From Eledone cirrhosa (taxonomy: Eukaryota), in the NCBI GenBank assembly GCA_964016885.1, contig OZ024744.1, positions 63,116,001-63,180,000 on the forward strand: a stretch of DNA of 64,000 nt. Reading direction: 5' to 3'. The position numbers and the translations under genes were made by a program. Of this stretch, positions 60,128 to 60,372 are shown piece after piece (the stretch's first letter is position 1; each line of letters begins with the position of its first letter). The notes beneath the pieces were generated by a model. The model saw only the letters and a list, made by a program, of their open reading frames with translations, did not search any database and was not told where the DNA came from.

Positions 60128-60372
60128 GATTTTGAGTTTATGTTGGTTGTATACCAACACCTCAGTATGCAGGCTGGAGCACTCGACGAAGTGCGCAGGT
60201 TGGTTTGGTATTGACAATATCATACACCTAAACAACATATGTACTTGTCTATACCATACTAATTCAAACTGCCTGAAGAGGTCACAGCCAAAGATGGCTG
60301 TCACTGAAATATATATAGCAGTAATAAACGAAGCTAAATTTTAATCATTTGACTTATATTTAACTTTATTTT
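60128..60372 (+). mobile_element. 245-bp hammerhead-bearing mini element (retrozyme-like or Penelope terminal repeat) inside a TA array
   Basis: Unique island between kb-scale TA arrays. Contains a hammerhead, AATAAA and a T-rich tail; no ORF. Confidence 0.7.
60268..60322 (+). ncRNA. Minimal type I hammerhead ribozyme
   Basis: ACTGC-CTGAAGA-GGTCACAGCCA AAGA TGGCTGTCACT-GAAA-TATATATA-GCAGT. Helix I is 5 bp, the core is complete, helix II is 10 of 11 paired, and helix III is palindromic. Confidence 0.85.

Follow-up and report, generated by a model that had tools for sequence, protein, structure and literature searches.

The window, the whole 64,000-nucleotide stretch of Eledone cirrhosa DNA analyzed here, carries a long (TA)n/(TG) microsatellite array. 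A window scan found one non-alternating block inside it, the island at 60128-60372, which agreed with the original prediction that this was the only complex sequence of the array. The island was chimeric: an inverted tail piece was joined to the end of a pseudo-LTR (pLTR), both from one element but in opposite orientations (Table 1). A 7-bp hairpin described near the 5' end was present (60141-47/60153-59) and sat in the inverted piece. A target-site duplication was not readable in the flanks, the flanks being microsatellite. The whole island was spanned by no contig among those listed from four runs, so the island junction rests on the assembly; for one locus among thousands of copies, a missing spanning contig proves nothing. 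A run of N, either a gap or a withheld stretch, was present at 62364-62565, 2 kb downstream of the island, and the local assembly is therefore discontinuous there.

A likely last coding exon of a host gene, presumably CRAMP1-like, lies upstream of the array. Pfam and ESM Atlas searches with one host exon returned nothing. The hammerhead motif of the island had been placed in sense orientation about 7 kb past a CRAMP1-like stop codon; the distance was right (7.0 kb), and the gene name is tentative. A poly(A)-signal-like ATTAAA/AATAAA was found at 53550-59, 235 nt after the stop and 6.7 kb before the motif.

Other mobile elements were also seen in the window. A long open frame with a cysteine-rich domain, which we take to belong to an RTE-like non-LTR element, occupied 31983-34200 (-) with TA arrays on either side. 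Fragments of the RTE-like family with 48-50 bp tandem repeats were numerous across the window, e.g., at 49584-51899 and 61650-62363. Another non-LTR element was presumably present twice, at 15305-16279 and 46102-47654; its motifs were RT-like and of the restriction-like endonuclease kind.

Table 1. Positions of the features at the island locus (window coordinates)
Feature	Positions	Strand	Basis or remark
Likely last coding exon of the upstream host gene, outside the element	53112-53315	+	stop TGA 53313-15
(TA)n/(TG) microsatellite array, insertion target	53852-61645		island is the sole complex block inside
Last 82 nt of the 98-nt 3' tail of the element, inverted	60128-60209	-	100% identical to L076 5908-5989
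7-bp hairpin near the tail end	60141-60159	-	direct reading; also forms in the sense-tail fold
GT shared at the inversion junction (2-nt microhomology), at the foot of an element hairpin	60208-60209		shared by query 1-82 and query 81-245
Last 165 nt of the pLTR, ORF sense	60208-60372	+	99.4% identical to L076 5727-5891
Helix I, 5' arm	60268-60272	+	direct reading, isolated-motif fold, descriptor
Catalytic core CUGAAGA	60273-60279	+	direct reading, descriptor; variant also in published Hydra hammerheads
Helix II (closing pair G.U, mismatch C-C, loop AAGA)	60280-60305	+	folds; compensatory changes in the L110 sister family
GAA and 8-nt palindrome ATATATAT, helix III predicted between two copies	60306-60316	+	monomer pair probability 0.09
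Predicted cleavage-site base, AUA triplet, cut 3' of the base	60317	+	hammerhead numbering, descriptor
Helix I, 3' arm	60318-60322	+	direct reading, isolated-motif fold
pLTR 3' end with AATAAA, 55 nt past the cut, then (TA)n without poly(A)	60323-60372	+	24 of 43 copies end at +50 to +56

Hammerhead motif and its predicted fold

Helix I, the core, helix II, GAAA (60306-09) and AATAAA were all read directly where the original prediction had placed them. The features of a minimal type I hammerhead were found: a CUGANGA...GAAA core, an NUH triplet, and helices I and II. For helix III, a palindrome TATATATA at 60310-17 had been proposed. The palindrome was confirmed and its register was not; the self-complementary sequence is ATATATAT at 60309-60316, from A15.1 to U16.1. 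The predicted cut after 60317 stands, A60317 being the unpaired cleavage-site base. AATAAA followed helix I immediately, at 60323-28. It was rejected as a poly(A) signal of the element because copies stop 40-140 nt further on without poly(A).

Motif scans used a custom type I hammerhead descriptor. It gave one match in the 64-kb window, the island motif, and none in 20,000 dinucleotide shuffles of the island. Across all fetched loci, 186 matches were obtained in 0.48 Mb, compared with 1 in 0.96 Mb of shuffled sequence. The island hammerhead motif is not a chance occurrence. The covariance-model scan suggested earlier gave a different outcome: Rfam models returned no hammerhead family for the region at E<=10, only repeat-driven miRNA noise. 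The canonical G10.1-C11.1 closing pair was absent, with G.U in 146 of the 149 descriptor matches of the island type.

The minimum free energy structure of the isolated motif consisted of helices I and II, with a z-score of -1.95, and 11 of 200 shuffles were equally good. The predicted pair probability of helix III in the monomer was 0.09. In dimer folds, the double hammerhead (-39.2 kcal/mol) was 5.8 kcal/mol better than two monomers (-33.4), although the best-scoring dimer fold was non-catalytic (-43.8 kcal/mol). With at least 100 nt of upstream sequence, the predicted pairing probability of helix I was 0.01-0.05; with 140 nt, its displacement was predicted in the island and the native element alike. 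The hammerhead is predicted to cut weakly and only in pairs. It had also been proposed that helix III could pair with flanking (UA)n RNA. Such a duplex was possible (-4.4 kcal/mol), but without a helix I arm. By hammerhead topology, the partner must carry this arm after the cleavage base, so (UA)n pairing cannot build an active core; on this modelling, the duplex would compete with helix III rather than activate the ribozyme.

Parent element and its copies

A genome search with the island, in which 40 of 107 candidates were scored, listed 69 matches. These split into query 81-245 and query 1-82 on opposite strands. The order in other copies was the pLTR end, 16 more bases, and then the reverse complement of island 1-82; among the 69 matches listed, the full 245-bp arrangement was found at the island locus only. 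Upstream of the pLTR, reading frames were reached that carry RT and GIY-YIG motifs. This is the linkage to Penelope ORFs for which a search had been advised, and 7 of 8 loci fetched for a long frame held the pLTR within the stretch. An unbroken ORF from ATG to stop was present in two of the eight, L076 (892 aa) and L077 (891 aa). At the protein level, at least 150 matches had 97-100% identity (150 of 59,736 candidates scored).

L076 showed the layout of the element: an inverted arm, the unbroken 892-aa ORF, the pLTR and the tail, the last being 100% identical to island 1-82. Its pLTR lay 1.1 kb after the ORF stop, in ORF sense, with 99.4% identity to island 81-245, and the hammerhead sat in this pLTR, sense to the ORF. 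The original reading was right in taking the motif for a minimal type I hammerhead whose helix III is palindromic, a type known from the terminal repeats of Penelope elements. The tail recurred just before the ATG of L076, ending about 55 nt upstream of it, so the tail is the 5' UTR of the next unit. The exact junction of tail and 5' UTR occurred 60 times in the genome. A 12-bp perfect palindrome was noted at the tail start, directly after the pLTR end (L076:5891-5903), and may mark a priming or recognition site.

The single ORF had RT and C-terminal GIY-YIG motifs, with YRDD at 353 and YIG at 788 of the frame. RWK (39) and DKT (122) were present and GxKF/Y was absent. In the linker and endonuclease, CxCX5C (754), CxxC..E (852) and CxH (880) were conserved in homologues. 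Inspection of the endonuclease by eye showed no CCHH motif. Neither RT nor GIY-YIG was matched in Pfam by the ORF or its pieces, and a PDB sequence search with the ORF gave nothing significant; homologue P0024 matched RVT_1 in Pfam at 2e-7. The homologue search (E<=0.001) yielded 43 proteins, 42 of them at 31-55% identity over long stretches. Most were unnamed and most carried the same motifs; one named homologue was from a cephalopod. Two low-complexity insertions of the L076 ORF, at about aa 480-620 and 695-750 in the RT thumb/linker, were absent or much shorter in homologues, and stayed in frame in young copies.

According to Craig et al. 2021 (PMC8557442), the Hydra clade of Penelope-like elements keeps RWK, does not conserve GxKF/Y, has DKT, CxCX5C, CxxC and CxH, targets (TA)n, and carries hammerheads. 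The published Hydra-1_Obim protein was collinear with the 892-aa ORF by eye. The length typical of the clade (<3 kb) was exceeded, with a tandem spacing of 4,097-4,152 bp, but this trait is typical rather than diagnostic. On motifs and comparison by eye, the element is assigned to the Hydra clade. No published description of an L076-type family was found in searches of the literature. It is apparently a young, high-copy, undescribed Hydra-clade family. The pLTR end and tail were also found, near-identical and in native order, in contigs from two other organisms (runs X5 and X6), so the family is not confined to this genome.

The exact 20-nt hammerhead motif occurred 5,607 times in the genome (control 0), which answers the earlier question of copy number. 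In the first 30 loci, 24 of 43 copies had their 3' end at +50 to +56 and 18 at +151 to +154; the remaining copy belonged to another family. There were thus two fixed 3' ends, about 55 and 153 nt past the predicted cut and 98 nt apart. The 3' flanks were simple repeat in 41 of the 43 copies and TA-rich in 38, and the TA-targeting mobile family of the original prediction is upheld. Exactly two divergent arms were present in 24 of 37 loci examined, and 23 of these 24 combined one tail end with one pLTR end (P 1.4e-6), a rule that the island follows. The 5' truncation points of the arms were variable. Arm starts clustered near -110 and at -156 to -170, adjoining predicted hairpins. A start at -110, as at the island junction, was seen in L001, L003, L004, L012 and L026 (four loci besides the island), and the short-tail design of the island was shared with four other loci (L010, L013, L017 and L029).

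Insertion, cleavage and alternative readings

The pLTR, the inverted 5'-truncated copy and the tail at one end only reproduced the layout described for Penelope-like elements in PMC8557442, with a tail of 98 nt against the published 30-40. The island very probably arose when the 3' end of a Hydra-clade Penelope-like element inserted in inverted form, with heavy 5' truncation. In the reconstituted PAc element, cutting and extension involve both target strands, the tail is delimited by two internal RT starts, and hammerhead mutants insert unimpaired (PMC11167929). By the same route, the GIY-YIG domain would nick both strands of (TA)n. Reverse transcription would be primed by one DNA end at the pLTR terminus (+55 relative to the hammerhead cut) and by the second DNA end at the tail terminus (+153). 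At the island, the two opposite cDNAs would have stopped early at hairpins, after 165 and 82 nt, and been joined at the 2-nt microhomology beside the hairpin. By analogy with PMC11167929, the 7-bp hairpin likely belongs to a structure at which reverse transcription starts.

A longer palindromic two-armed insertion could instead have come first, its center being deleted later at the 2-nt microhomology. Palindromes of such a two-armed kind are deletion-prone; most close copies were palindromes of 100-450 bp, and the microhomology lies at the junction. Against this, arm lengths formed a continuum, and the -110 start recurred in the four other loci with different partner arms, as expected from an RT stall site. 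The island was also 99.4-100% identical to L076, leaving little time for a second event. Later deletion was considered unlikely. A small independent non-coding RNA family had been proposed originally, and the island could on that reading belong to a non-LTR retrozyme family spreading via short linear or circular self-cleaving RNAs. Its intact type I hammerhead inside a 245-bp unit and the thousands of short copies speak for it, and a pLTR origin has been proposed for retrozymes (bioRxiv 10.64898/2026.07.22.740005). The arrangement of copies speaks against it. Among the first 100 motif places listed, all 18 pairs with a spacing below 1 kb were divergent. Within 5 kb, same-strand pairs in this list occurred solely at spacings of 4,097 and 4,152 bp, the unit length. 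The three same-strand neighbors in all 147 loci were 1.3, 1.7 and 4.1 kb apart. Instead of the tandem arrangement for which a check had been suggested, divergent inverted pairs were found; head-to-tail hammerhead tandems of 150-450 bp numbered 0 in the first 100 of 5,607 places listed, a sample that leaves room for rare arrays elsewhere, and 0 in the 147 loci. The 5' ends were variable, copies did not end at the cut site, and the 245-bp layout was confined to the island among the matches listed. No fixed-length ORF-independent unit was seen, and the linkage to the ORF was direct. Membership in a retrozyme family is thus very improbable. The independent-family claim was wrong, all island parts being the end of an ORF-bearing autonomous element. 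It had been stated at the outset that copies forming the truncated end of a known Penelope family would reduce the island to an element end; the identity of pLTR and tail to L076 is essentially that situation, the family being apparently undescribed.

A third possibility is that the host co-opted the motif as a downstream co-transcriptional cleavage element ending upstream transcription. The sense orientation 7.0 kb after the stop and the intact core would suit such a role, and it had been suggested that the motif could cut read-through transcripts. However, the island is one of thousands of young near-identical copies. Its motif is solitary, with the low probability for helix III alone given above, and upstream sequence is predicted to displace helix I. 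The poly(A)-signal-like hexamer already follows the stop closely, 6.7 kb ahead of the motif, and single minimal Penelope-like hammerheads had no detectable cleavage in PMC4209133. An effect of the motif on the upstream gene is unlikely, and co-option is extremely improbable. The island is best read, with high confidence, as a short rearranged end-piece of an abundant Hydra-clade Penelope-like retroelement, i.e., ordinary transposon debris.

In the insertion route favored here, the hammerhead is predicted to be a passenger motif that needs a second copy for helix III. Tandem full-length units 4.1 kb apart would supply a second hammerhead in one transcript, and the paired hammerheads would trim precursor RNA inefficiently; the RNAs that were copied would have kept the motif uncut. 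Copies ended 55 and 153 nt past the predicted cut and never at it, so the copied RNAs were uncut, and the uncut motif was present in all 3' pLTRs. At the island locus, the motif is solitary and likely inert. A single minimal hammerhead of Penelope-like elements had no detectable cleavage and dimers had low activity (PMC4209133).

The 5' ends of ORF-bearing copies were investigated for a footprint of cleavage. At 39 of 65 ORF-start junctions, the sequence ran more than 10 nt through the cut of the upstream motif. The 5' end lay within -10 to +15 of the cut in 7 of 65 copies, against 2.9 expected. In the first 30 copies, 6 were near the cut against 1.2 expected (P 0.002, in a window chosen after viewing). 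Replication of this cluster failed in the next 35 junctions, with 1 against 1.7 expected (P 0.8). The 65-junction set dropped L132 (no row), L146 and one copy in L134 (no abutting match), while L127 gave two rows and L134 three. One contig joins the inverted tail directly behind the cut, at 60318, but was not counted because 4 letters fit either side.

Conservation of the motif was examined in related copies. A sister-family hammerhead at L110:2127-2182 (+) had the same helices I and III, a CUGAUGA core and a G-C closing pair, with compensatory changes in helix II. With these changes, and with helix III palindromy kept across other hammerhead types, structure is conserved among related motifs. 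In 165 copies, all 8 shared-variant sites were outside the motif (P 0.02-0.04), while private variation was equal inside and outside (~0.8-0.9%). This pattern is consistent with selection acting on source elements while insertions decay neutrally. Of 7 differences common in the contigs of runs X1 and X4, 2 were inside the motif, one in loop II and the other changing the G.U closing pair to G-C. The hammerhead might be active in vivo as a tandem-pLTR dimer and define where some full-length template RNAs, a minority, begin. Insertions would then be built by obligatory asymmetric priming, in which one target strand uses the pLTR end and the opposite strand the end of the unusually long 98-nt tail. 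The 7 of 65 copies starting near the cut speak for it, with the excess confined to the first 30. This combined proposal is distinctly doubtful. If true, hammerhead cleavage would have left a footprint in the genome for a Penelope-like element, which was not found reported in the literature.

Comparison with known elements and neighboring families

The nearest published member was Hydra-1_Obim. According to PMC8557442, it shares with the island family, as does the Hydra clade, the C-terminal GIY-YIG domain, RWK, DKT, CxCX5C, CxxC, CxH and the (TA)n target. Near the 3' end, Hydra elements also have a type I hammerhead on the sense strand whose helix III is short and palindromic, and the CUGAAGA core occurs in Hydra-1_oBim, Hydra-1_aJap, Hydra-1_cRog and Penelope-5_HM. 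However, the hammerhead helices of Hydra-1_Obim differ from those of the island family, and its unit is 2.5 kb compared with about 4.1 kb; the 892-aa ORF is longer than that of published Hydra elements. Since hammerhead and length differ, the island family is separate from Hydra-1_Obim. Unlike Hydra-1_Obim, it has the two low-complexity ORF insertions (relative to homologues), clear pLTRs and a 98-nt tail. Helix III of the island is AU-only with an AUA triplet, whereas the tabulated Hydra hammerheads have A-C at 15.1-15.2 and a GUH triplet. Most published Hydra hammerheads have no G-C at 10.1-11.1 (same source).

The 5-bp helix I, long helix II, palindromic rudimentary helix III, pLTR location and predicted dimer need were consistent with the minimal hammerheads of Penelope-like elements in Cervera and De la Pena 2014 (PMC4209133). 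Unlike these, the island family has mostly G.U instead of the conserved G10.1-C11.1, with a U-to-C restoring variant common in reads, and its helix III is the target repeat of the element itself. Compared with PAc Poseidon of Anolis (Frangieh et al. 2024, PMC11167929), the two predicted RT starts bounding the tail at the pLTR-ORF junction and the predicted cutting and extension of both target strands are alike, and cleavage by the PAc hammerhead is dispensable for insertion in vitro. PAc belongs to a different clade; its hammerhead overlaps the ATG, whereas that of the island family lies about 210 nt upstream, and the tail of the island family is about 3 times as long as the 30-40 bp cited in that paper. 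Non-LTR retrozymes (Cervera and De la Pena 2020, PMC7229834; bioRxiv 10.64898/2026.07.22.740005) share the type I hammerhead, a unit of a few hundred bases, low GC and thousands of copies. They are head-to-tail repeats of 150-450 bp expressed as circles, whereas the island family consists of inverted pairs with variable truncation and an ORF-bearing element.

The island locus matters little, being one of several thousand fragments. The family is suitable as a test system, with unbroken ORFs, near-identical copies, two sharp 3' ends separated by 98 nt, and strictly one tail per insertion. It makes two-site priming, (TA)n targeting and the role of the ribozyme testable. The hammerhead role in endonuclease-bearing Penelope-like elements was stated to be unclear in PMC8557442, and the one reconstituted element belongs to another clade (PMC11167929). 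A lone hammerhead island in a microsatellite should be compared with pLTRs before it is called a retrozyme.

Other type I hammerheads, mostly with palindromic helix III, were seen near the copies, with 16 helix I types among the 186 descriptor matches. They were present at L010, L013, L015, L036-L039, L045, L056, L063, L064, L069, L070, L073, L077, L084, L104, L108, L110 and L128. In these other types, 21 of 26 inner helix III pairs unenforced by the descriptor were Watson-Crick (13 distinct sequences, shuffle mean 8.1). Many Penelope-like families likely pile up in the same TA tracts of this genome. Another Hydra-type ORF, AT-rich and with a separate hammerhead type close by, was found at L063:2823-4226 (-) and L060:2360-2866 (+); in L063, it lay between two converging pLTRs of the family of the island.
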